DNA from: a virus
Virus record (IMG/VR): IMGVR_UViG_3300028840_006907
Location: 288,001-352,000 of that record
Length of the DNA stretch: 64,000 nt
Strand: one strand, 5' to 3'
The translations under genes and the position numbers were made by a program. The notes beneath the pieces were generated by a model. That model saw nothing but the letters and a program-made list of their open reading frames with translations, had not been told where the DNA came from and ran no database searches. Positions 47,967 to 63,665 of this stretch are shown one piece after another (within the stretch, counting starts at the first letter, position 1; each line of letters opens with the position of its first letter).

Positions 47967-48536
47967 ATGTTTTATAGAAGAGAATTAATTGATCTAAATT
48001 CTAGTGAAGGAAAGACTCTAATGGAATGTATGTTGCCAGGTTGTCAGGGCAATGAGTTTAAAGAGACTGTTGCCAATAGATTAAGAAAAGTCTCACGGAT
48101 ACTTAAGGCTCAATTCTATGACATCGATCCTGAAATGCTCCTGAGACTATATCAGGATTATCTCGAAGAAATGCCTGATAATTGGAATTATATCCTTCCA
48201 CCTGAACTTAATGAAATTATAAAAAGTGGTCAGGCTAGTAATTATTTTCTACTTGATATTCGGAAACCTGAAGATTTTCAGGAAGTTCGTATACCAGGTA
48301 CAGTAAATATCTATTGGCAAGATGTATTGAAAAAAGAAAATTTAAATAAATTGCCTATTGATAAAGAAATAATAATTATTTGTTATCTTGGTCATACAAG
48401 TTCTCAGATCTTGGTTATTTTGTCCACATTAGGTTACCGTTGTAGATCTCTGAAGTTCGGGATGGGTAAAAGTCCCGATGTAAAAGTACTTATAAAGGGT
48501 TGGTTGGATTATAATTTCCCAGTGATAAAACAATAG
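47967..48536 (+). CDS. rhodanese-like domain protein
   Basis: FLLDIRKPEDFQEVRIPGTVNI and IIICYLGHTSS resemble rhodanese fold with active-site Cys loop. Confidence 0.45.
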   Translation: MFYRRELIDLNSSEGKTLMECMLPGCQGNEFKETVANRLRKVSRILKAQFYDIDPEMLLRLYQDYLEEMPDNWNYILPPELNEIIKSGQASNYFLLDIRKPEDFQEVRIPGTVNIYWQDVLKKENLNKLPIDKEIIIICYLGHTSSQILVILSTLGYRCRSLKFGMGKSPDVKVLIKGWLDYNFPVIKQ

Positions 48537-48543
48537 ATTTATT

Positions 48544-49032
48544 ATGAATAAGCAATCGTTTAATAAAGAAAATGTTACAGAACTTCTTAGTCAATTGAAA
48601 AAAGTAGTTAATCGGGATTTGGGTGATGAATATAATCAGGAATTAATAGAATTAAGTAGGAAAATAGACCGAAATTTTAAAAAGAGAAAATTAGTAATGC
48701 GGGTGGCTTCTAATTTTTTAAAAACTATTCTTGCTACAATGGCATATAGTACTCATGGTAAATGGTCACCTTCAAAAGAGATTTATAAAACTGAAAAAGA
48801 ACGTGGTAATAAAGTTGATAAACTTCTTTTACAAGAAAATTATGACGCTATTTGGGTATGCCCTAAACCAGAAGATTGTGTAAGATATAATAGAAGTAGT
48901 GATGAAGAAGATGATCCTGTAACACAGGAAGAAATTGATGAACTCGTCAAAGTCAATTTGAGTGGAGCTACACACGTAAAATCTATGGATGATGGTGATG
49001 GCGGGGAATTATGGATTAGAAAGGCAAAGTAG
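48544..49032 (+). CDS. hypothetical protein
   Basis: ORF in operon. Confidence 0.5.
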   Translation: MNKQSFNKENVTELLSQLKKVVNRDLGDEYNQELIELSRKIDRNFKKRKLVMRVASNFLKTILATMAYSTHGKWSPSKEIYKTEKERGNKVDKLLLQENYDAIWVCPKPEDCVRYNRSSDEEDDPVTQEEIDELVKVNLSGATHVKSMDDGDGGELWIRKAK

Positions 49033-49610
49033 TGATTTGTTCTGATGAATATCAATTCATATTTTATGCAGTCCCTAAAACCGGTTCTCGATCCATGCAA
49101 AATTTTCTTCAACGTTACGGTCGTCGCTCTGTAACTGGCTGGTCACCTAATCATAATAATTATGAAGAAGTAAAAAGTGATGTAGGTATAGAAAAAAGTA
49201 ATAAATATTTTAAGTTTGCTTTTTTCAGAAATCCATGGGCTATGCTTGTATCCATGTATTTCTATAATATGCATATATGGGGACTAAATGCCAAAAAAGA
49301 TTCTGTTGTAAATTGGCTTAATACATATAAAGGCGGGGATCCTTATATTCCTTATATTTTTGATAATGAAGGAAATGCCATTTTGGATTTTATGGGTAAG
49401 TTAGAAAATTCCAGAGAAGATTTAAAAACTGTCTGTAAAATGTTAAAGATCCCGATCTCAGGAGAATTGTCCCATATAGGAAAACAACATGTAAAAGGAA
49501 GATTGGATTATAGAGCGTATTATGAAAGTCCAGTACTAGTGGAAAAAATAAGAAAGATATTTTCAAAAAGTCTTAGTGTGTTAAATTATGACTTTAATGA
49601 AGGGGTTTAA
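49032..49610 (+). CDS. sulfotransferase-like protein
   Basis: N-terminal FYAVPKTGSRSMQ resembles PAPS 5'-PSB motif; GTG start. Confidence 0.5.
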   Translation: MICSDEYQFIFYAVPKTGSRSMQNFLQRYGRRSVTGWSPNHNNYEEVKSDVGIEKSNKYFKFAFFRNPWAMLVSMYFYNMHIWGLNAKKDSVVNWLNTYKGGDPYIPYIFDNEGNAILDFMGKLENSREDLKTVCKMLKIPISGELSHIGKQHVKGRLDYRAYYESPVLVEKIRKIFSKSLSVLNYDFNEGV

Positions 49611-51387: not shown

Positions 51388-51416
51388 TTGATCTTATGAT
51401 ATTTATGTTTTAGTAT
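51388..51416 (+). promoter_or_regulatory. candidate sigma70-like promoter / leader end upstream of the repeat array
   Basis: TTGATC - 17 nt - TAGTAT immediately before the first repeat, inside an AT-rich leader-like region 51253-51416. Confidence 0.2.
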
Positions 51417-52310
51417 ATTCCCCGCGTATGCGGGGCTGGGCCGATAAATCTTAAAATGGGTAAGATAAAAACCTGAATATTCCCCGCCCATGCGGGGCTG
51501 ATGCGTAATATAAATAATTTTTGATCAATTATAGGACATATTCCCCGCCCCTGCGGGGATTCCCCGAAAATATTGATGTTTTTTTGTATATATCAAAAAT
51601 ATTCCCCGCCCCTGCGGGGTTGATGCGAATACCGAACAAGTGCAGGGCCTGCAGATTATATATTCCCCGCGTATGCGGGGCTGGCGCGTAGGAGGTAAAA
51701 ATGAAATCGAAACATATTCCCCGCGTATGCGGGGCTGGTTCTAGAATTGAATGAAGCGCTGAATTTTCCCCGCCCATGCGGGGCTGAACCGACCGGGAAA
51801 TCATATCTATCCATAAATCTTGCATATTCCCCGCGTATGCGGGGCTGAACCGATACTAGATTGGGACATGTGTTTACCCAGAACATATTCCCCGCCCATG
51901 CGGGGCTGAACCGATTTCAAAAAACACGACCAGATAAAGATGAATATTCCCCGCGTATGCGGGGCTGTGTCAGGGTGAGAGGCTCGTGACGAATAATTTT
52001 TCATATTCCCCGACTCTTCGGGGTTGCCCCTCAGGAAGCTATTGAATTGCAAAAAACTGTATTCCCCGTCTATGCGGGGCTGTCTCTCCACATGCAAATG
52101 TAAGTAGTAAATACTGAATATTCCCCGGCATTCCGGGGCTGATCCCGTCTGGTAAAAACATAAAATGGTTCATCATAAGTATTCCCCGCCCATGCGAGGT
52201 TGGGCCATCCAGTACTGCTACTGCTAGGACCGTATTCCCCGCCCATGCGGGGCTGATCCTACGACTGGGACAGAAGTATTCATTGGTTTCACCCCGGCCT
52301 TTCCGGGGTC
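51417..52310 (+). CRISPR. degenerate type I-E-like CRISPR-style repeat array, 15-16 units, no cas genes in window
   Basis: Units start at 51417, 51479, 51540, 51601, 51662, 51716, 51765, 51826, 51887, 51946, 52005, 52061, 52120, 52181, 52234 (degenerate 52291); core ATTCCCCGC-N4-GCGGGGCTG; best units end CTGAACCGA; period mostly 59-62 bp; intervening sequences unique. Confidence 0.55.
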
Positions 52311-53408: not shown

Positions 53409-55859
53409 TTATATTTTATTATTTTTTCTAAGGAGAGCTATCTGACGTTTAATCCATCGAGGAGTTTCTTCAAGAGTTTCAGCCATTTGATTTCTTGTCA
53501 TCTTTCCACGATTATCTATTATGAATTGGAGCTTTTCTTCAGTCTTTCTATCTTTGGTACAACCAATAGGGTTTTTTGTAGATAATGTACCTTTTTTTTG
53601 TAAGAATTTTATTTGAGATTTAACCCATCGCTCTGTTTCATTGAGAGCTTTAGATAATTCTTTTTTAGTTTTATTTTTATAATTAGTGATTATATACTGC
53701 GTTTTTTCAGGGGTTCTTCTACATTTTGTTGAGAATTTAGAAATCTCTTTTAAATAGGTAAATTTCTCAGTGGGTTGTTTAATATTTATATCTTCAATAC
53801 ATTTTGAATTATATATTTCTTTTTCTCTTTTAGGATAAGGTTTAGTAACATAATTTTTTAATTTGTTAATTTTTTTCTTATCTCTTTTATTTTCACCTAT
53901 TAATAAGACATATTTATGTTTTCTTTCAGTAATAAATTTTTGAGCTTCAGATAATATATTTTTATTCCAATTATTCCATTGAACTTTAATTCCTTCTGGT
54001 ATGGTACTCATATTTTTAAAACCATTTTCTTTAAACCATTCCTTTTGAGAAATAATCCCTTGATTTTTACACCATTTTTTAAATGCTGATGTACGTTTTA
54101 GAGATTGAGCTGAAAAAGTCCTATTATTTTTAATGGAAGGATGTTTATATAAGTATGAACTTCCAAAGTTATTTCCTAGATAATCAAATCCACAAGCTTG
54201 GTAAATAGTCCCTATTTCAAGAGCTTTAGGATCAGCATAACCTATGAAAGCTCTTTTAGAAGTGTTATTAGCCATCCAATTACAAGCAAACCTTATAAGA
54301 CGGCTACCCAGGTTTTTCGGGGTCCATGAGGCAGTGGCACCTCTTTGAATTAAAGCTTCATATTTGGGAGTATCTTTACCTAGAATTTTGGAATATGCTG
54401 TGGGTTCATTTATAAATAATACTCCTGCGAGAATATTATTGTATCTGGCTGTGAAGCACCATTTTGGTATTACTCCAATTGTTCCTAACCATTCATATTT
54501 TTTTATAAATTGGACCATTTCATTATTAAATTTTTCTTCAGATAATGTAAAAGAAGTAGCTTTTAAAGAAGAGTGATTGAAATCGATATTTTTTTTATCT
54601 TCATCAATCCATTGAAGTTTCTTTTTATATTGGTGGCATATAAAAGTGGTCTTGTTTTTACTGTTAATTTTATTTTTTATTAAATCAATGATAATACCTT
54701 TTCGGATAGCTTCTTTTACATCATCAGACCAAAATCTAATCAAATTGGGTATATTTTTATTTTGGATTTCATCATTCTTAATATTTTCTTTTATTTTTAA
54801 TGCCCTTGGAGACGTATCATTTTCTCTTATTTCTTTACCATGCCAATAATTACCATCATATTGTACCCATAAGTTATAGCGAGGCATATAGAAATCAATT
54901 ACATGTTTAATAATTGGGTGCATAACTTGATGTTCTACAAAAGGATCAAATACAATAAGATAATTAAAAAAGTTATTTTCTTCATCTGAGGATGAGAAGG
55001 AATTATTTAGTTTAACTGTTTTATATGTTTTTTCTTTTATTTCAACATTCTGTTGGGGATTTTCAACGCCATATCTTTCAATATTAGTTTCAGTGATTTT
55101 TTTCTTAATCTCTGGAGATTGGAATACATTGTCAACCCCGTATCTTGATTGTACTGTTACTTTAACTTTTCTTTTTACTTCTTTAGATTGAGAGGGGTAT
55201 TCTACTCCTCGTTTTTCAATATTAGATTGACGGGATTTTTCTTTCATTGAGTTTAGTTGAGTAGAATATTCTACGCCATAACGTTTTTTAATAGTTTCGT
55301 TATTATGTTTAACTATATCTTCATTTATTTTATCTCGATTCCTTCTTAATCCTAGTTTAATAGCTCTTTCTCGGATGGCTTTCCAGGTCCTGTTTTCAAA
55401 GTAGAGCATAATAAATTCCATAGAATTCTTTTCATATACTTCTTTTAAAAGATCATCTTCTTTGGGTGACCAGAAGTCTTCCCTAGCAGGAGCGCTTTTA
55501 CCACCATCAATCATTTCTTGTTTAATTATTTCAGGATTTCTTTGAAGGTTTAATTTTTGAGCATTACTTCGGATGCTTTGCCATGATCGATTCTTGAATT
55601 TAGAAAGGATAAATTCTTTTGAATTATTTTCATATATATTTTTAAGAATATTTATCTCTTCGGTTGTCCAGGAATCTTTTCTTGGTCCTCTTTTTTTACG
55701 GTCTTCATTTATAAGGTCAGGATTACGGTGAAGATTTAGCTTACGTGCTTTTCTACAGATGGTTGTCCAAGATTTATTTAATTTGGAGATAATAAATTCT
55801 TTTGAATTATTTTTATATATTTCTTTTAATAAATTTTCTTCTTCTATTTTCCAACGCAT
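53409..55859 (-). CDS. large multidomain DNA-binding / nuclease-like protein
   Basis: Start at MRWKIEE (RBS AGAGG; track start 55916 is a non-ATG extension); three tandem ~60-aa HTH-like repeats (W..EE..L...Y...S.EFI..F.NR.W..IR..A.KL.L.RN), tandem RYGVEN repeats, Vsr/DUF559-like motif FYMPRYNLWVQYDGNYWHG, two C-terminal ET.RW.K.QI.LL.K repeats. Confidence 0.6.
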   Translation of the reverse strand: MRWKIEEENLLKEIYKNNSKEFIISKLNKSWTTICRKARKLNLHRNPDLINEDRKKRGPRKDSWTTEEINILKNIYENNSKEFILSKFKNRSWQSIRSNAQKLNLQRNPEIIKQEMIDGGKSAPAREDFWSPKEDDLLKEVYEKNSMEFIMLYFENRTWKAIRERAIKLGLRRNRDKINEDIVKHNNETIKKRYGVEYSTQLNSMKEKSRQSNIEKRGVEYPSQSKEVKRKVKVTVQSRYGVDNVFQSPEIKKKITETNIERYGVENPQQNVEIKEKTYKTVKLNNSFSSSDEENNFFNYLIVFDPFVEHQVMHPIIKHVIDFYMPRYNLWVQYDGNYWHGKEIRENDTSPRALKIKENIKNDEIQNKNIPNLIRFWSDDVKEAIRKGIIIDLIKNKINSKNKTTFICHQYKKKLQWIDEDKKNIDFNHSSLKATSFTLSEEKFNNEMVQFIKKYEWLGTIGVIPKWCFTARYNNILAGVLFINEPTAYSKILGKDTPKYEALIQRGATASWTPKNLGSRLIRFACNWMANNTSKRAFIGYADPKALEIGTIYQACGFDYLGNNFGSSYLYKHPSIKNNRTFSAQSLKRTSAFKKWCKNQGIISQKEWFKENGFKNMSTIPEGIKVQWNNWNKNILSEAQKFITERKHKYVLLIGENKRDKKKINKLKNYVTKPYPKREKEIYNSKCIEDINIKQPTEKFTYLKEISKFSTKCRRTPEKTQYIITNYKNKTKKELSKALNETERWVKSQIKFLQKKGTLSTKNPIGCTKDRKTEEKLQFIIDNRGKMTRNQMAETLEETPRWIKRQIALLRKNNKI

Positions 55860-55962
55860 ATGAGTACCTCTTTTTAGTATATTACTTATTATAACAGGTA
55901 TTAGAGTTATTGTCAATATTTCATTTAATAAATATGGAATTCATTAATTTATAGGGAAAAAG

Positions 55963-56316
55963 ATGGAAATTGAAATTTATGGAAAAGAATTTGTTTCTTG
56001 TAATATTTTAAGGGCTGAAGTAGGTACAAATTGCCCACAGGGGGGAGATACAGGACATGGTGGTCGAACTATTTTAAGATTGATTGATGAAGCAGCTACT
56101 GATATAAGTATAAAAGTAGATGGTCAGCCTTTAGGTAGTATAAAAACTTTGGAAATATTATTAGGTGGCGATACTGAGTGCGACACTTTTATGAATGCTC
56201 TTAATTTTGCCTTGAATGTATTAAAAGATCATAATCCAAATTATGAAATGGATCCACATATAAGAGGTTCTGGGAAGGGATTGATACAAAAAGATTATAA
56301 AATAGAAACATTATGA
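55963..56316 (+). CDS. hypothetical protein (first gene of ATPase mini-operon)
   Basis: ORF whose stop overlaps next start (ATGA). Confidence 0.5.
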   Translation: MEIEIYGKEFVSCNILRAEVGTNCPQGGDTGHGGRTILRLIDEAATDISIKVDGQPLGSIKTLEILLGGDTECDTFMNALNFALNVLKDHNPNYEMDPHIRGSGKGLIQKDYKIETL

Positions 56317-56861
56317 TTACAAAGATAGAATTATTAGAAAAATACAGAACTTTAAAACCGTTTGTTATGGAGCCTAATCTAGGAGTCAATCTTATTGTTG
56401 GTGAGAATGGTTCGGGTAAATCCTCATTGTTAAATATTATAAAGGAAAATGCTCCTGAGGTAAGATTAGAAATTGAAGGTACTATAAATTATTACCATTT
56501 TGATACGGAAAAGGACAATCCTCGAACTCAAGGCACTCTTCCATTTAATGCTCCTGGTGATGTTTATGCCTATCATCTGACGTCACATTTCCAGAGTCAT
56601 GGTGAAGTACTATTTCCTATTTTAAATCTTATGAGAACTTTTGAGAACAGGATTTTATTCTATGATGAACCGGAGAGTGGGGTCTCGATTAATAATCAGT
56701 TAAAGGCATGTACTGCGATAAGAAAAGCGGTAAGGAATGGTTGTCAACTTTTTATTGCGACTCATTCTTATATATTTATAAAAAAATTTAAAAAAGTCTT
56801 TGATTTAAAGACATATCAATTTGTAAAATCAGAGGATTGGTTATCTCAATTTAGGATATAA
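56313..56861 (+). CDS. minimal ABC-type P-loop ATPase
   Basis: Walker A GENGSGKSS, Walker B ILFYDEPESG, H-loop-like IATHS in only 182 aa. Confidence 0.6.
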   Translation: MITKIELLEKYRTLKPFVMEPNLGVNLIVGENGSGKSSLLNIIKENAPEVRLEIEGTINYYHFDTEKDNPRTQGTLPFNAPGDVYAYHLTSHFQSHGEVLFPILNLMRTFENRILFYDEPESGVSINNQLKACTAIRKAVRNGCQLFIATHSYIFIKKFKKVFDLKTYQFVKSEDWLSQFRI

Positions 56862-56862
56862 C

Positions 56863-57000
56863 ATGATACCAGAATGGGTTTATAGATTAATGGTTGAAGA
56901 TCGAGAACGATGTATGATAAATCATTTAGAAAAAAGGAATTATATTGACGAGGAAGAGATAAAAGAGAATACTCTTTCTGATATCTCTGAAAAGGATTAA
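56863..57000 (+). CDS. small acidic peptide (not in ORF track)
   Basis: 45-codon ORF starting 1 nt after ATPase stop; weak. Confidence 0.25.
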   Translation: MIPEWVYRLMVEDRERCMINHLEKRNYIDEEEIKENTLSDISEKD

Positions 57001-57073: not shown

Positions 57074-57913
57074 ATGCACAAAATAATAGTCTTATTATTA
57101 GTTTTGTTAGTGAATGTTTTTTCTGTAACGCCTGAATATTTGTGGGTAGGTTCCTACACTATTGAGCATTACAATAATGGTGTTTATTTGGCTTATAGTC
57201 ATAAGCAAGCTTCTGCTTTTACTTCTCTAATGAGTTGGCTTATTAATTGGAAAAATCTTGATATTGATTATAAGTGGAATCATAACTATAAGGATGCTGC
57301 TGTTAATGAGACAGTATTCGAAGGACAGGATTTTAATATTAATGAATTTCTCATTTTTGTTAGTCATGGTTATCGGGGAGGAATGGTCATTAATAAATAT
57401 AATACTTCGACTACTTATGCAATGGATATCTCTAATCAATATCCTAATACCAGATCATGGGATTTTGGTAATTCTTATACCAAATGGATTATCATGGGTT
57501 CTTGTCATACAATCCTGGATGAGCATGTGACTGTGTGGGGGACCACTTTTTATTTTTACGATCAGATTTTTGATGGTGTGCATAGTATTATGGGCTATAA
57601 ATCTGATGGTAGAAACGTTTATGATGGTGGTCCGATAGGAAGATTCCCATTAGAGTGGGTTCATAATCGACGTTCTATTTGGAATGCATGGCGTGTGTCG
57701 GTCCGGGAAGAAGTATATGAAGGTTGCAACCAAGATGTGACACCTTCCATGGTAGGTGTTTGGGGAACTGTGAATGGGCAAGATTGGGATGCAGATACTG
57801 AATTGTTTTATGCTGTGTATGATGCCTTAACACCTCATAATGAAACTTTGGGGGCTTGGATAGGTTATGGTATGATGTATCGTCATGTTGAATATGGCGA
57901 TCCGGAATATTAA
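57074..57913 (+). CDS. secreted protein with caspase-like His/Cys dyad (putative CHF-fold peptidase)
   Basis: Signal peptide MHKIIVLLLVLLVNVFS; strand-His-Gly (LIFVSHGYRGG) and strand-Cys (WIIMGSCHT) about 48 residues apart as in caspase/gingipain-type peptidases; ORF call firm, function tentative. Confidence 0.55.
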   Translation: MHKIIVLLLVLLVNVFSVTPEYLWVGSYTIEHYNNGVYLAYSHKQASAFTSLMSWLINWKNLDIDYKWNHNYKDAAVNETVFEGQDFNINEFLIFVSHGYRGGMVINKYNTSTTYAMDISNQYPNTRSWDFGNSYTKWIIMGSCHTILDEHVTVWGTTFYFYDQIFDGVHSIMGYKSDGRNVYDGGPIGRFPLEWVHNRRSIWNAWRVSVREEVYEGCNQDVTPSMVGVWGTVNGQDWDADTELFYAVYDALTPHNETLGAWIGYGMMYRHVEYGDPEY

Positions 57914-57930
57914 AAAAGGGAGATAAAGAG

Positions 57931-58848
57931 ATGAAAAAAGTATTTATTATAATAGTATTGTTTTGTGCTTATGGATTTTCAGAAATATCTGTGTCAGATA
58001 TTGTTAAATCATTTGTGGATAATCCAAAGACTTTCAGATCTAGATTGTTGAAATATGAAGTTATTCCAGACCATGTTGATTTACCAATAGAATTTGTCGA
58101 TGATGAAGATGAAAGTTTATGGAAAACTAAGAAAAAGGTTAATTATATAATAGATTATTCAAAGATGTCGAAATGTGCTGATAAATTTAGAGATCTTTTT
58201 GCATATGAAGGATTGACTGAATATCAGTATATGGATCAGTCAAACCTTTTGGTATTTAATCATCCTAATGGTGGCCGTGAAGTATCCGCACAGATTGTCA
58301 GGGATTTGATTAATACTAGAACAGAGGCAGAATTAAAAAATATAGGATTGACTTTAGGTGAAAAGCTCTTTGCCATTTTTAAGAATAAAATAGAATTTCA
58401 ATGTACGGAAATAGAGTATACAAGGGGTCATACGAATTTAAACCAAATAAGTAAATACTCTATTCGATATAGGCGTATTTTTAATGATGGTATTGTCTTA
58501 CAGAATATTTCCTATATAATGTTAACTCTGGAAGGACTTGGTGATTTGATTGAAGTCGAGATTAAATGGCCTAAATTTAAAAAATGTGAAAATATAAAGA
58601 ATGGCATTTTAATTAAGGACGCTTTAATATTAGCTAAACAAGAGTATAATGAAATCGCTTCTCGAAAAGTTGATGAATTCTTAAATATTGAAGCTATCGA
58701 TAGACTTTCTATAACTGGATCTTGTTTTGGATGGACTCATGAGATCATTGATGGTGTTAATTTATTAAAACCTAGTTATGGGTTTGTGGGAATAGCTGAA
58801 ACAAAGAATGGTAAAAAAGAACATCATTATATAAATATCGATAAATGA
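57931..58848 (+). CDS. secreted hypothetical protein
   Basis: RBS GGGAG; signal peptide MKKVFIIIVLFCAYGFS. Confidence 0.55.
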   Translation: MKKVFIIIVLFCAYGFSEISVSDIVKSFVDNPKTFRSRLLKYEVIPDHVDLPIEFVDDEDESLWKTKKKVNYIIDYSKMSKCADKFRDLFAYEGLTEYQYMDQSNLLVFNHPNGGREVSAQIVRDLINTRTEAELKNIGLTLGEKLFAIFKNKIEFQCTEIEYTRGHTNLNQISKYSIRYRRIFNDGIVLQNISYIMLTLEGLGDLIEVEIKWPKFKKCENIKNGILIKDALILAKQEYNEIASRKVDEFLNIEAIDRLSITGSCFGWTHEIIDGVNLLKPSYGFVGIAETKNGKKEHHYINIDK

Positions 58849-59978: not shown

Positions 59979-62900
59979 ATGGCTCAAGTAGAAAGAAAAT
60001 GGATCCAGGACCAAGCAATTTCCAATGAAAAAGTAGATCCCACTGATATTTATACCATTACAGGTTTAAGAGTTGATGAAACCAATGCCATTGGGAGAGT
60101 AGGAATAGGTTTATCTAGCCCTTTGGATGCTCTTCATATTCAACGAACTGATTCTTCTTCTGGAATGATGCTGGATCTTAGTGATGGTACAAATGGTAAA
60201 CTTTATAAGATATATTCAGGAGCTAATGGTTTACTGAATTTTACTGATGCTACAGATGGGGGCATATTCACCTATGGTGAATCAGGTTCGATAGGTCGAG
60301 TTGGTATCAATACCGCATCTATCCAAGATCACCTTCATGTAAGTTCCCCTTTAACAGATGCTGCGTTAAGACTTGATTTAGATGATGGACTCAATGGTCG
60401 AGCTTATCGTCTTGTCTCAGATACAGATGGAGCTTTTAGGATAATTGATGTTGATGCGGGTAATGTAAATAGACTTCAGATTGCTAATACAGGAACTTTA
60501 ACTGTCTCAGGTGATGCAACTTTTGATAGTAATTTTCAAATTAATGGTACTGTTACAGTTATTAATACTGAAATTGTCATTGCAGATCAATTAGAAATAA
60601 ATCAAACTGACAATCAGGCAGCATTGATAGTAAGTCAAGATACAGGTGGTGCTACAGCCACTGTAATGAGAATTGAAAATGCTGGCACAGGCCATGCTTT
60701 AACCGTAGATTCTGGTAATGTAGGTATTGGTACTTTAACTCCGGCTGCTCCTCTTCATGTTCAAGGTGATATAATTACTGCCAATGGGTATAATATCGGA
60801 GACACCACTCATAGAATTGGTACTCTTTGGATGGCTTCTACTGTAGATTATTTGACTGACCTTAATTTTAGTTCAGGTGGAACAAATGTTACTTTTGCAA
60901 CCGGTGGAAATGTCGGGATAGGTTCTGGTACTCCTACCCAGGCCCTGGATGTGGTTGGAACTATAGAAAATACAGGTGATATCATAACAACTGGTTCTTA
61001 TCCTTCCGGTTTAATAAGAGGAGCTTATTTAACGATAACTACTGGAAATTCGACTTTCCAAGGAAGAGTGGGAATTGGTGTTACAAGTCCGTCTTATCCT
61101 CTTCATGTTGGTGGAGACATTTATTCCAATACAGGTAATATTGTAGCCACTGCTGGAACTGTGACAGGTGGATCTGGTTTAATAGCTACTACAGGTGGTG
61201 TTATAGCCTCTGCTGGAAATATAACAGCGACCTTGGGTGATCTCATCGCTTCTGCGGGTTCTGTAACTGCTAATACAAATGTAACTGCTACGAATGGAAA
61301 TATAGTTGCTTCTAATGGAAATATTTCTGCTACGAATGGTACAGTAACAGGAGGCACCGGTTTAATAGCTACCACAGGGGGTGTGACCGCTACGAATGGA
61401 AATATAGTTGCTTCTAATGGAAATATTTCTGCTACGAATGGTACAGTAACAGGAGGCACCGGTTTAATAGCTACCACAGGGGGTGTGACCGCTTTAGCTG
61501 GTAATATCTCTGCTTCGGCTGGTTCTGTAACTGCTAATACTAATATAACAGCCACGAATGGTAATATTGTTGCTTCTAATGGAAATATTTCTGCTACAAA
61601 TGGTACGGTAACAGGAGGCACCGGTTTAATAGCGACTACAGGTGGTGTAACCGCTACGGCTGGAAATATCACTGCTTCAAATGGTAGTTTTGTCGCTCCA
61701 AATGGAATTGTAAGTGTAGGTTTTGGCGTTATAGCAGCAGGGGGTGATATATTTGCCCAAACGGGTAAAGTAGGAATTTCAACCAGTTCTATTGCAGGAG
61801 GTTATGTATTACATGTTCAAGGAAACGCTTATTGTTCAGGTCAAGTAGATACAAATACTTTGGATGTAGGTAGTGGCAGTTTTACTGTAAGTGCAATTGG
61901 TGCAACAAATATCGGACCAGGCTGGTTAACTTTCGGTCAACATATGTCTGGTGGAGGACAGATTGGATCTGCTTCTACCGTAAATATTGTTTCAACCAGT
62001 GGTGCAACTATGTCAGGAGGTTCAGGCGCTGTCTCAATTACTACTAATAACAGTGGTACGCCAAGTGCGATTAATGTGACCTCTGGAAATAACACCGGAT
62101 CAGGAGTTGGTGGAGCACTCAATCTGAATGCAGGTGATTCGGGAGGAGCTGGTACAGGTGGTGCAGTAACTATTACTGGAGGAACGGCTTCAGGTGGTGG
62201 ATCTACAGGAGGAGACATTTTGCTGCTTCCTGGAAGTGCTGTCTCAAATGGGCGCGTTGAGGTAGGCACAGGTGCCTCTTCGAAAAATTTATGGGTTTCA
62301 GGTAGTGTAACTATAGAAGGAGCTAATTCTGCTTTTGCTCTTTCGATTAATAATACGAATTATGTAGGAGCTTATTGTGCAATAGCAGGAGCATCAACGG
62401 TAGCTGGCTGGTTTGAAAATAGTGGTTCAGATTCAACATCTATGTTTGTGCAACAATTAAATACTGGTAAAGGGCTTTTCGCTACTGGATTAGGATTAAA
62501 TTCTTTTGCAGGATTTTTCCAAAGTACGGGCTATACAACTCTTAGGTCAGAAGTGAGTGGTACTGGAGGTGGTGATTATGCTGTACATGCAATATGTACA
62601 AATGCTGGATCGAGTGCCACTTCAGCAGCAGTTTTTGCTCAAAATTGGGGAGGTGGAAAAGCTATTCAGGCAACCGCAGGAACTGGAACTACTATTCAAG
62701 GGTCAAACACTAATGGTACTGCTATTTATGGGTCTCAAGCAGGAACCTCTGGTAGAGCAGGACGTTTTAGGTGTAATGCTGGATCTTATGCATACAATGC
62801 TGTTGAGGTAGAAGTGACTTCAGGTACAGGAGCTTCAAAAGGGATCTTAGTTAATTATACCGGTTCTGGTAATGCTATAGAAGTAAACGGTGGTAGTGGC

Positions 62901-63665
62901 TATGGTATTGAAGCATACCAAAGTGCAGGAACAGTTTATCATGGGACTAATTCAGGAACTACAGGTAGAGCTGCTTTATTCGAAACTTCTAATACCAGTT
63001 TTAATGGTACTATAGTTGAAATAAGTAGTAATACAACATCACTGAATAATAATTGTTTAGTTTGCAATCATTCAGGTAGTGGTACAGGTCTTACTGTTAA
63101 CTCCAATGCAGCGGGTGCTAGTTTTGGTATTAACAGCTTTATGCCGGGTGTCTCTGGAACTGGAAGAGCTATTAATGGCTACTGTGTTTCAGCATCAGGA
63201 TTTGCCGGTTATTTTACTGGGAATGTACATATTGCGGGTACTCTTTCTAAAACTGCGGGTGGTTTTAAAATTGATCATCCAATTGAACCTGAGACAAAGA
63301 ATTTAGTTCATAGTTTTGTTGAAAGCCCTGAGATGAGGAATGTCTATTATGGACGGGCTGTGACTCATGATGGGACAGCATCTATAGGTCTTCCGGATTG
63401 GTGGGTTACATTAAATGGGTCTAATAAGGAAGAGTATAATTATAGTTTAACTACTATTGGTAAATACAGCAGATTATTTATTAGTAAAGAAATAGAGAAC
63501 AATCAATTTGAAGTCTCTTCATTGGATGGAGACTGTACTTTTTCCTGGACTATCTCAGCCATTCGCCATGATACTTATGCTGAGAGCAACAGAATACAAG
63601 TAGAAAAGAACAAAACACAAGAAGAAATAGATGATTATAAAAAAGAGCATGGCATTTCTGTCTAA
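59979..63665 (+). CDS. giant Gly/Thr/Ser-rich fibre protein (tail-fibre or surface-fibre like) with internal tandem repeats
   Basis: 1228 aa; RBS AAAGGAG; at least six G.VGIGT..P...LHV.G motifs, 34-aa tandem repeats, C-terminal FKIDHP...VHSFVESPE...YYG domain. Confidence 0.8.
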   Translation: MAQVERKWIQDQAISNEKVDPTDIYTITGLRVDETNAIGRVGIGLSSPLDALHIQRTDSSSGMMLDLSDGTNGKLYKIYSGANGLLNFTDATDGGIFTYGESGSIGRVGINTASIQDHLHVSSPLTDAALRLDLDDGLNGRAYRLVSDTDGAFRIIDVDAGNVNRLQIANTGTLTVSGDATFDSNFQINGTVTVINTEIVIADQLEINQTDNQAALIVSQDTGGATATVMRIENAGTGHALTVDSGNVGIGTLTPAAPLHVQGDIITANGYNIGDTTHRIGTLWMASTVDYLTDLNFSSGGTNVTFATGGNVGIGSGTPTQALDVVGTIENTGDIITTGSYPSGLIRGAYLTITTGNSTFQGRVGIGVTSPSYPLHVGGDIYSNTGNIVATAGTVTGGSGLIATTGGVIASAGNITATLGDLIASAGSVTANTNVTATNGNIVASNGNISATNGTVTGGTGLIATTGGVTATNGNIVASNGNISATNGTVTGGTGLIATTGGVTALAGNISASAGSVTANTNITATNGNIVASNGNISATNGTVTGGTGLIATTGGVTATAGNITASNGSFVAPNGIVSVGFGVIAAGGDIFAQTGKVGISTSSIAGGYVLHVQGNAYCSGQVDTNTLDVGSGSFTVSAIGATNIGPGWLTFGQHMSGGGQIGSASTVNIVSTSGATMSGGSGAVSITTNNSGTPSAINVTSGNNTGSGVGGALNLNAGDSGGAGTGGAVTITGGTASGGGSTGGDILLLPGSAVSNGRVEVGTGASSKNLWVSGSVTIEGANSAFALSINNTNYVGAYCAIAGASTVAGWFENSGSDSTSMFVQQLNTGKGLFATGLGLNSFAGFFQSTGYTTLRSEVSGTGGGDYAVHAICTNAGSSATSAAVFAQNWGGGKAIQATAGTGTTIQGSNTNGTAIYGSQAGTSGRAGRFRCNAGSYAYNAVEVEVTSGTGASKGILVNYTGSGNAIEVNGGSGYGIEAYQSAGTVYHGTNSGTTGRAALFETSNTSFNGTIVEISSNTTSLNNNCLVCNHSGSGTGLTVNSNAAGASFGINSFMPGVSGTGRAINGYCVSASGFAGYFTGNVHIAGTLSKTAGGFKIDHPIEPETKNLVHSFVESPEMRNVYYGRAVTHDGTASIGLPDWWVTLNGSNKEEYNYSLTTIGKYSRLFISKEIENNQFEVSSLDGDCTFSWTISAIRHDTYAESNRIQVEKNKTQEEIDDYKKEHGISV
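61288..61491 (+). repeat. two perfect 102-bp in-frame tandem repeats inside the fibre gene (third diverged copy near 61552-61653)
   Basis: Identical DNA units encoding TATNGNIVASNGNISATNGTVTGGTGLIATTGGV. Confidence 0.85.

Follow-up and report, generated by a model that had tools for sequence, protein, structure and literature searches.

The locus described here occupies positions 55,963 to 57,000 of a 64,000-nt stretch of viral DNA (positions 288,001 to 352,000 of IMG/VR record IMGVR_UViG_3300028840_006907), to which we refer throughout as the window. Three consecutive open reading frames (ORFs), of 117, 182 and 45 amino acids (aa), are found there on the same strand, and the middle one encodes a small ATP-binding cassette (ABC)-type ATPase. 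An initial annotation, made from the letters alone, took the three to form a translationally coupled module that could be an undescribed defence or counter-defence system. Our analysis confirms the ATPase and does not uphold the module.

A minimal ATPase and its two adjacent reading frames

The three ORFs are present exactly as first described, with a 4-nt overlap (ATGA) joining the 117-aa ORF to the ATPase gene and a 1-nt gap (TAA-C-ATG) separating the latter from the 45-aa ORF (Table 1). These junctions had been read as a sign of translational coupling; they are real, but they are uninformative in this genome, because, of 69 neighbouring gene pairs encoded on one strand of the window, 36 (52%) overlap or abut as well, eight of them by the same 4 nt. 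Tight junctions are therefore the norm here and carry little weight as evidence for a module. Upstream of position 55,963 we found no plus-strand promoter comparable to the one that precedes the divergent gene on the other side.

The Walker A, Walker B and H-loop motifs reported at the outset are confirmed in the translation of the 182-aa protein, and we find it to be an intact and unusually compact ABC-type ATPase that falls by sequence into the AAA_15/AAA_21 class and keeps every catalytic motif, with the residues that are invariant among 34 aligned family members distributed over all of these motifs (Table 1). The protein has the fold of an ABC nucleotide-binding domain (NBD) and the features that define the superfamily, namely Walker A, Walker B with its catalytic glutamate, the H-loop histidine, and a signature that precedes Walker B and begins a helix. 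The signature reads SHGE, a variant of LSGGQ/LSGGE; in the predicted model it opens a helix (residues 98-107), and Walker B forms a strand (114-118). A full helical (ABC-alpha) subdomain and the Q-loop glutamine are absent. One helix (82-91) is all that is left between strand 60-64 and the signature. The helical lobe, measured from K36 to S95, spans 59 residues, compared with roughly 100 in canonical ABC domains. The Q-loop region is occupied by the invariant glutamate E66 of a family-specific loop, DxEKxNPR, which in the model comes after strand 60-64, in a region of lower confidence. The description of the protein as unusually short holds against AAA_15/AAA_21 proteins of 300-600 aa, but not against the smallest solved ABC domains (1sgw_A, 200 aa), relative to which it is shorter by just about 10%. 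With every catalytic element of an ABC NBD kept, the protein is probably catalytically competent.

Matches to catalogued families fall on the two ends of the protein. The Pfam models AAA_15 (40.8 bits, cut-off 32.1) and AAA_21 (31.0 bits, cut-off 27) align to residues 2-44 and 111-169 only, ABC_tran only just exceeds its cut-off (25.6 bits, cut-off 25, residues 27-66 only), and SMC_N stays below its cut-off (28.6 against 40 bits, residues 2-43 only). PADLOC, PHROGs and NCBIfam return generic partial matches with the same terminal pattern. Those in PADLOC, to HEC-02A, mad3, AriA, AbiLi, GajA and PtuA, cover residues 1-45 and 100-170, which are the generic P-loop and Walker B, and involve the ends of the profiles only (237-286 of 338 for HEC-02A; 2-44 of 534 for GajA); no PADLOC system model is matched beyond these generic ATPase ends, and none matches any neighbouring gene in the window. 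Near full-length profile alignments are obtained with the NBDs of ABCE1, ABCF and MsrE, and the heads of UvrA, Rad50 and SMC rank among the top sequence and fold matches.

A word-indexed search returned 58 homologues, which range from 147 to 309 aa but for the most part have 170-210 aa, and an exhaustive profile search returned, at E ≤ 1e-30, at least 348 representatives of 50%-identity clusters, nearly all of 175-210 aa. Members come from the Bacteroides phages DAC19, DAC20 and DAC22 (DAC19_53, 198 aa), from uncultured phages of 636 and 735 kb, from IMG/VR contigs of 65-440 kb and from metagenomes, and a scan of metagenome contigs gave about five further true family loci among the matches listed. 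No true member was found among 185,579 bacterial and archaeal species genomes (one genome per species), where the best matches, bacterial AAA_15/AAA_21 proteins of 240-260 aa, reach about 80 bits, whereas family members score 138 bits or more. These bacterial homologues were considered as a clue to function and set aside: they constitute a separate family of longer AAA_15/21 proteins, solitary and also without conserved neighbours. Pfam, PHROGs, NCBIfam and PADLOC hold no dedicated model for the phage family.

Extra domains are present in some divergent relatives. The N-terminus of P0212 is weakly GatB/YqeY-like (PF02637, E 1.5e-5, below cut-off), as is that of P0253 (PF02637, E 0.022, below cut-off), and P0188 has no Pfam match and a resemblance to GatB/YqeY, a tRNA-binding tail domain, that was judged by eye. 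All three carry an insertion of about 60 aa at the exact site where the helical lobe is missing from the window protein. P0166 has an N-terminal segment resembling a helix-turn-helix (HTH), again judged by eye, and other divergent relatives have assorted C-terminal tails. These additions follow no consistent theme, and most members have none. Judged by its sequences, the family is a coherent, uncatalogued, phage-only class of very small ABC-type ATPases without a fixed partner.

The two partners of the ATPase had been thought to lack recognisable motifs. This does not apply to the 117-aa ORF, which has a strongly conserved motif and belongs to a family of its own, a separate group of small mobile-element proteins with the invariant pattern GTNCPQGGDxGHGGRT...LGGDxE. 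Elsewhere this family occurs in other contexts and never beside this ATPase, and as an uncatalogued and widely spread small mobile-element protein it is of interest in itself. The protein is possibly a nucleic-acid-binding one composed of a small beta-sheet and a helix; the closest known folds, for this protein only, are the PUR-alpha/Whirly/PC4-like beta-beta-beta-beta-alpha nucleic-acid-binding folds. A match of its LGGDxE...L(E/D)FA segment to the human spliceosomal protein RED (PDB 6q8i/5o9z, residues 152-219; E 0.008) is marginal and probably due to chance, although the identity of the motif is striking. PADLOC, NCBIfam and PHROGs gave nothing for either the 117-aa or the 45-aa ORF. A search of 5.8 billion proteins with the 45-aa ORF recovered only itself, and its single partial homologue lies on a 1.7-kb contig (L214), where the first 17-20 residues of a 65-aa ORF (MIPxWxYxLMVxxRxRC) and the TAAnATG junction match. 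The three copies of this phage differ by one mismatch in 6.5 kb, variation too small for a test of selection on this ORF, which may or may not be expressed.

Gene neighbourhoods across the ATPase family

A module predicts that its gene families occur together across genomes, and this is not what we observe. We scanned every ORF of 44 loci with a profile of each family, A2 for the ATPase and A1 for the 117-aa protein, and the contigs of this phage were the only ones with matches to both. The analysis of homologous neighbourhoods that had been proposed as a check on the module gave the same picture, with about 23 distinct loci having no neighbouring gene family in common. An all-against-all BLASTP comparison of the neighbours revealed no family common to distinct ATPase loci, except the divergent gene described below (window and L006); in a Pfam census of 146 neighbours (at least 105 aa, within 3.5 kb) from 20 loci no family appeared more than twice; and a Pfam scan of 10 directly adjacent ORFs elsewhere, several of which overlap the ATPase gene, gave unrelated orphans and one LexA-type HTH. 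Across the approximately 23 loci there is no conserved fused or adjacent effector of the TOPRIM, HNH, PtuB, AriB or antitoxin kind. The initial annotation had itself held that homologues occurring as fragments of a housekeeping ABC transporter or SMC-type protein, without conserved small partners, would speak against a module. Conserved small partners are indeed lacking, but the homologues are full-length proteins of a distinct family and not housekeeping fragments.

The closest relatives differ from the window on both sides of the ATPase gene. In L006, where the ATPase is 68% identical, the overlapped upstream slot holds an unrelated ORF of 104 aa, and a homologue of the 45-aa ORF is absent. 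In L214 (ATPase 71% identical) a gap of 165 bp lies upstream, and the 65-aa ORF mentioned above lies downstream. In L215/216 (ATPase 64% identical) merely a 14-codon ORF separates the divergent gene from the ATPase gene, the 45-aa ORF is absent, and the ATPase gene is followed directly by a homologue of a 241-aa gene of the window, so that the 45-, 279- and 305-aa genes of the window are insertions relative to that genome.

The sole neighbour kept among the closest relatives is the divergent gene at 53,409-55,859, in the same divergent position, with 75% identity in L006 and 56-65% over two tblastn segments in L215. It had been labelled nuclease-like, which is correct for its endonuclease-like DUF7487 part and incomplete, since a Mom (GNAT) domain is fused to it. 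The 816-aa product contains three Myb/SANT-like repeats, a DUF7487/homing-endonuclease-like region, the Mom (GNAT) domain and two C-terminal HTH domains, and its PHROG matches are to Mom-like and homing-endonuclease families; this layout agrees with the Mom-endonuclease fusions that Iyer et al. 2021 (PMC7824862) described in jumbo phages. A Mom fusion was not found near more distant members of the ATPase family, jackhmmer matches to Mom being confined to L006 and L215, and a reciprocal check of the linkage by a single-sequence scan of viral contigs gave nothing. With tblastn against phages, the Mom fusion has domain-level matches only (Lak phages and Vibrio phage 501E54-1), in records that contain no match to the ATPase.

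Homologues of the ATPase are often located close to transfer RNA (tRNA) arrays or transfer-messenger RNA (tmRNA) genes, as in the regions 1600-7057 of L007, 2855-3926 of L016, 180-7550 of L125 and 4861-5072 of L002. In L007, two suppressor tRNAs (anticodon TTA) are encoded along with a protein that has an RF-1 domain, suggestive of a phage with a recoded stop codon.

Genomic setting of the locus

We treat the window as DNA of a huge phage because of its head-tail connector homologue, its homologue of the Tad3 anti-Thoeris protein, the Mom/endonuclease fusion, and the recovery of identical proteins on contigs of 388-470 kb; the phage itself has a genome of about 470 kb. The window is AT-rich and densely coding, with genes arranged in strand blocks. 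Of the virion markers that we found in the window, the connector ORF is the clearest; its identity to the L006 counterpart is 86%, and its homologues include one from Tunturi_5, a Tunturiibacter jumbo phage (Table 1). The trio sits in a variable accessory island between this gene and the tail-fibre-like genes. A megablast search of the 53-60 kb region against phage GenBank records found no match, and thus no close sequenced relative there, and the 64-kb window contains no tRNA genes.

Table 1. Features of the locus and its surroundings, in window coordinates; residue numbers (res) are those of the 182-aa protein
Feature	Positions	Strand	Remarks
117-aa ORF, ATG start	55963-56316	+	lineage-specific occupant of the slot
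182-aa minimal ABC-type ATPase, ATG start	56313-56861	+	sole conserved element of the trio
Walker A/P-loop GENGSGKSS, res 30-38	56400-56426	+	G30, G33, G35, K36 invariant (34 members aligned)
Family-specific loop DTEKDNPR, res 64-71, at Q-loop/lobe II position	56502-56525	+	E66, N69, P70 invariant; D64, K67, R71 at least 90%
Signature equivalent SHGE, res 95-98	56595-56606	+	S95, H96, G97 invariant; E98 at least 90%
Walker B and catalytic Glu ILFYDEPE, res 114-121, then D-loop SGVS	56652-56675	+	D118, E119, S125 invariant
H-loop ATHS, res 149-152	56757-56768	+	H151 and Q145 invariant
45-aa acidic ORF, ATG start	56863-57000	+	coding status uncertain
Mom (GNAT) and DUF7487/endonuclease-like fusion, 816 aa	53409-55859	-	Pfam Mom 41.9 bits, DUF7487 62.9 bits
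Sigma-70 consensus promoter TTGACA-17-TATAAT with TG	55888-55916	-	12/12 match, upstream of the Mom-fusion gene
Tad3 anti-Thoeris homologue, 154 aa	50788-51252	+	Pfam PF25185, 113.8 bits, E 5e-33
CRISPR-repeat-like array	51415-52260		15 copies, type I-E-like 29-nt repeat ATATTCCCCGCGTATGCGGGGCTGAACCG
Head-tail connector homologue, 301 aa	52410-53315	+	Tunturi_5, Bacillus phage G gp165, 485-kb uncultured phage

The view that the ATPase gene is surrounded by a conflict-related accessory region is supported by the Tad3 homologue (a member of a family of type I Thoeris inhibitors), the CRISPR-repeat-like array directly downstream of it, and the Mom fusion; a conflict role for the ATPase is thereby supported by association only. 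The repeats of the array deviate from their consensus at 0-8 positions with the hairpin CCCCGC...GCGGGG still intact, in part through compensatory changes (CCCCGA..TCGGGG, CCCCGG..CCGGGG), and the spacers are mostly 32 nt long, some being 20-30 nt. No cas gene was seen among the nearby ORFs scanned, two of the spacers had zero exact protospacer matches in viral contigs, and nothing in the window, the array included, reached the gathering threshold of an Rfam family. The array could be an orphan CRISPR array or a decoy array resembling an RNA anti-CRISPR.

Other parts of the window carry cargo of a different nature. A large sugar-nucleotide and glycosyltransferase cluster fills the first 39 kb; this block (1-39,800), unusual cargo in a phage, encodes a 994-aa GT2+GT1+methyltransferase fusion, UDP-glucose dehydrogenase, a DegT aminotransferase, NeuB, a radical SAM enzyme and a 683-aa methyltransferase+GT2 protein. 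Further along, at 47,967-49,610, are rhodanese and sulfotransferase-like genes. Downstream of the trio, the 279- and 305-aa ORFs (57,074-58,848) have hydrophobic, signal-like N-termini and no family matches, and are absent from the relative L215; a 1228-aa protein encoded at 59,979-63,665 has long Gly/Thr/Ala-rich tandem peptide repeats, is tail-fibre-like and has no Pfam match.

Function of the ATPase and comparison with known systems

We regard it as probable that the three ORFs are independent accessory genes and not a dedicated system, with the ATPase as a stand-alone, ATP-gated dimerising head whose client is not one of its neighbours. By analogy with other members of the ABC family, the protein would work as an ATP-gated switch, in which two copies sandwich two ATP molecules, the Walker A of one facing the SHGE of the other, hydrolyse them and reopen. 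The face bearing DxEKxNPR would engage a client encoded elsewhere, perhaps a host or phage macromolecule, possibly a nucleic acid or tRNA, or perhaps a host ABC-type protein. Its role would most likely be a dispensable one in phage-host conflict or host takeover, for which counter-defence is plausible, and the 117-aa protein would act independently of it. Several points weigh against this view. We infer homodimerisation and client binding by the DxEKxNPR loop from what is known of the ABC family. Many of the loci compared are metagenomic with short flanks, which limits the sampling of neighbours. An overlapped ORF of about 100 aa lies upstream of the ATPase gene in several loci, and such small neighbours, unrelated in sequence, could be structurally analogous adaptors. 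Finally, the divergent pair of Mom fusion and ATPase is intact in three of three close relatives with enough flank, and a lineage-specific functional link between the two may exist.

In the module reading, the products of all three ORFs would assemble into a single complex specific to this phage, translationally coupled and acting in defence, in counter-defence or as a toxin-antitoxin system. This reading can draw on the 4-nt and 1-nt junctions, on the partial PADLOC matches and on the further conflict genes of the island. Against it, about half of the same-strand gene pairs in the window are joined as tightly, the PADLOC matches are to generic P-loop and Walker B segments only, the upstream gene is swapped or missing in relatives whose ATPases are 64-71% identical, the 117-aa family lives elsewhere without the ATPase, with which it is joined in this genome only, and the 45-aa ORF is a near-orphan; we consider it the least credible of all the readings. 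A role of the ATPase as a helper of the Mom-endonuclease fusion, aiding DNA hypermodification or restriction, for example through DNA loading or the handling of an aminoacyl-tRNA co-substrate, can draw on the persistence of the divergent pair in the window, L006 and L215/216, where the intervening and following genes vary. Fusions of Mom with a restriction endonuclease (REase) in jumbo phages, and a GNAT coupled to an ABC ATPase in what are predicted to be DNA-modification systems, have been described (Iyer et al. 2021, PMC7824862). Mom of phage Mu uses Gly-tRNA(Gly) (PMC13219725), several of our homologues are near tRNA clusters, and some relatives carry the weak, below-cut-off GatB/YqeY-like N-terminal domain. 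The three genomes are, however, closely related and generally syntenic, as shown by the connector, so that the linkage may be inherited gene order; the surroundings of about 20 more distantly related members contain no Mom-like gene, the ATPase has no match in the Vibrio phage whose Mom-domain match is the best, and the Mom enzyme of Mu acts alone (PMC13219725). We rate a helper function as highly unlikely.

Proximity to tRNA genes also bears on the other alternatives. The ATPase could be a translation or tRNA factor, a single-NBD relative of the ABCF/ABCE type acting on tRNA, tmRNA or ribosomes during infection. Such genes lie within about 5 kb in six of the approximately 23 distinct loci (L002, L007, L016, L023, L027 and L125), a count that has no proper baseline because accessory genes of large phages in general tend to gather around the tRNAs. 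In L016 an array of eight tRNAs ends 48 nt upstream, L125 has nine tRNAs and a tmRNA, and L007 has its suppressor tRNAs and RF-1-domain gene; the near full-length alignments to the ABCE1, ABCF and MsrE NBDs and the weak GatB/YqeY-like fusions point the same way. The similarity to ABCF/ABCE is, however, no better than that to transporters, fusion partners differ from member to member (an HTH in P0166) and are lacking in most, and the window is itself devoid of tRNA genes, and we find this alternative quite unlikely. As a counter-defence decoy, the ATPase would mimic the ATPase heads of ABC-type immune or repair proteins of the host, such as AriA (of PARIS), GajA, PtuA, LmuB-like proteins and SbcC/Rad50, and would block activation of their nucleases through dead-end heterodimers. 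Consistent with such a decoy, it is of the AAA_15/AAA_21 class yet lacks the insertion between Walker A and signature, its family is confined to phages, it shares an island with Tad3, the Mom fusion and the CRISPR-repeat-like array, and its homologues are often beside phage tRNA/tmRNA clusters, phage tRNAs being a known counter-measure to the tRNA-cleaving PARIS system (PMC11464382). We give the decoy an outside chance, the first among the alternatives. Next to it, and to be given little credence, stands a broader proposition, in which head-only ABC ATPases of 175-210 aa would be a widespread, phage-specific counter-defence class directed against ABC-ATPase immune sensors (PARIS, Gabija, Septu, Lamassu, retron type) or tRNA-targeting immunity, encoded here in one counter-defence island with Tad3, the Mom fusion and a degenerate array of CRISPR-repeat hairpins that may be an RNA anti-CRISPR.

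If the three genes are independent, as we favour, the cloning of a nonexistent module is spared. What is left standing is a set of hundreds of 50%-identity clusters of mini ABC ATPases that appear catalytically intact and are confined to large phages, and the cultured representative DAC19_53 of Bacteroides phage DAC19 opens the way to genetics. Should the decoy or the tRNA-factor reading turn out to be correct, the protein would represent a new mechanistic class within phage counter-defence; should it be a generic helper, it would still be about the smallest natural ABC head and would bear on the minimal needs of the ABC ATPase cycle.

Compared with the NBDs of ABC transporters (TM_1403, 4yer_B; BtuD, 1l7v_C; the P. 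furiosus protein 1sgw_A), the window ATPase has a helical (coupling) subdomain reduced to one helix, the signature SHGE in place of LSGGQ, and no permease gene nearby; no transporter families (permease or substrate-binding) occur in Pfam scans of its neighbours in the window or of the 146 neighbours from 20 loci. With the SMC, Rad50, RecF and UvrA heads it has in common an N-terminal segment of the SMC_N type, but its model contains no coiled-coil or DNA-binding insertion, and no Mre11/SbcD-like partner is encoded nearby. The GNAT plus ABC-ATPase systems and Mom-REase fusions (PMC7824862) resemble the window in that a Mom(GNAT)-endonuclease fusion is divergent to an ABC-type ATPase, a pairing kept in three related phages, whereas this type of pairing was not seen beyond this lineage. 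Tenacibaculum phage pT24, which carries a published GNAT-ABC system, was not among the tblastn matches of the window ATPase, a search that involved no direct comparison with the pT24 ATPase.

The closest correspondence is with the OLD-like class of AAA_15/AAA_21 proteins (PF13175/PF13304; GajA, AriA, PtuA and the AbiEii type), both of whose Pfam cut-offs the protein passes, and with which it aligns in the N-terminal half, containing the beta-hairpin and P-loop, and in the C-terminal half, containing Walker B and the H-loop. In ABC-type immune proteins, the long insertion that follows Walker A and precedes the signature would be the part that binds effectors or oligomerises. The defence ATPases of the OLD-like class, HEC-02 included, have 340-640 aa. 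The window protein has 182 aa, lacks this insertion, carries the DxEKxNPR loop and is restricted to phages, and an effector such as TOPRIM or HNH is neither fused to it nor encoded beside it. Its nearest cellular relatives are the short stand-alone bacterial AAA_15/21 homologues of 240-260 aa, which are likewise solitary. Set beside these systems, what is new here is a phage-specific variant of the ABC-type ATPase, and not a new system.

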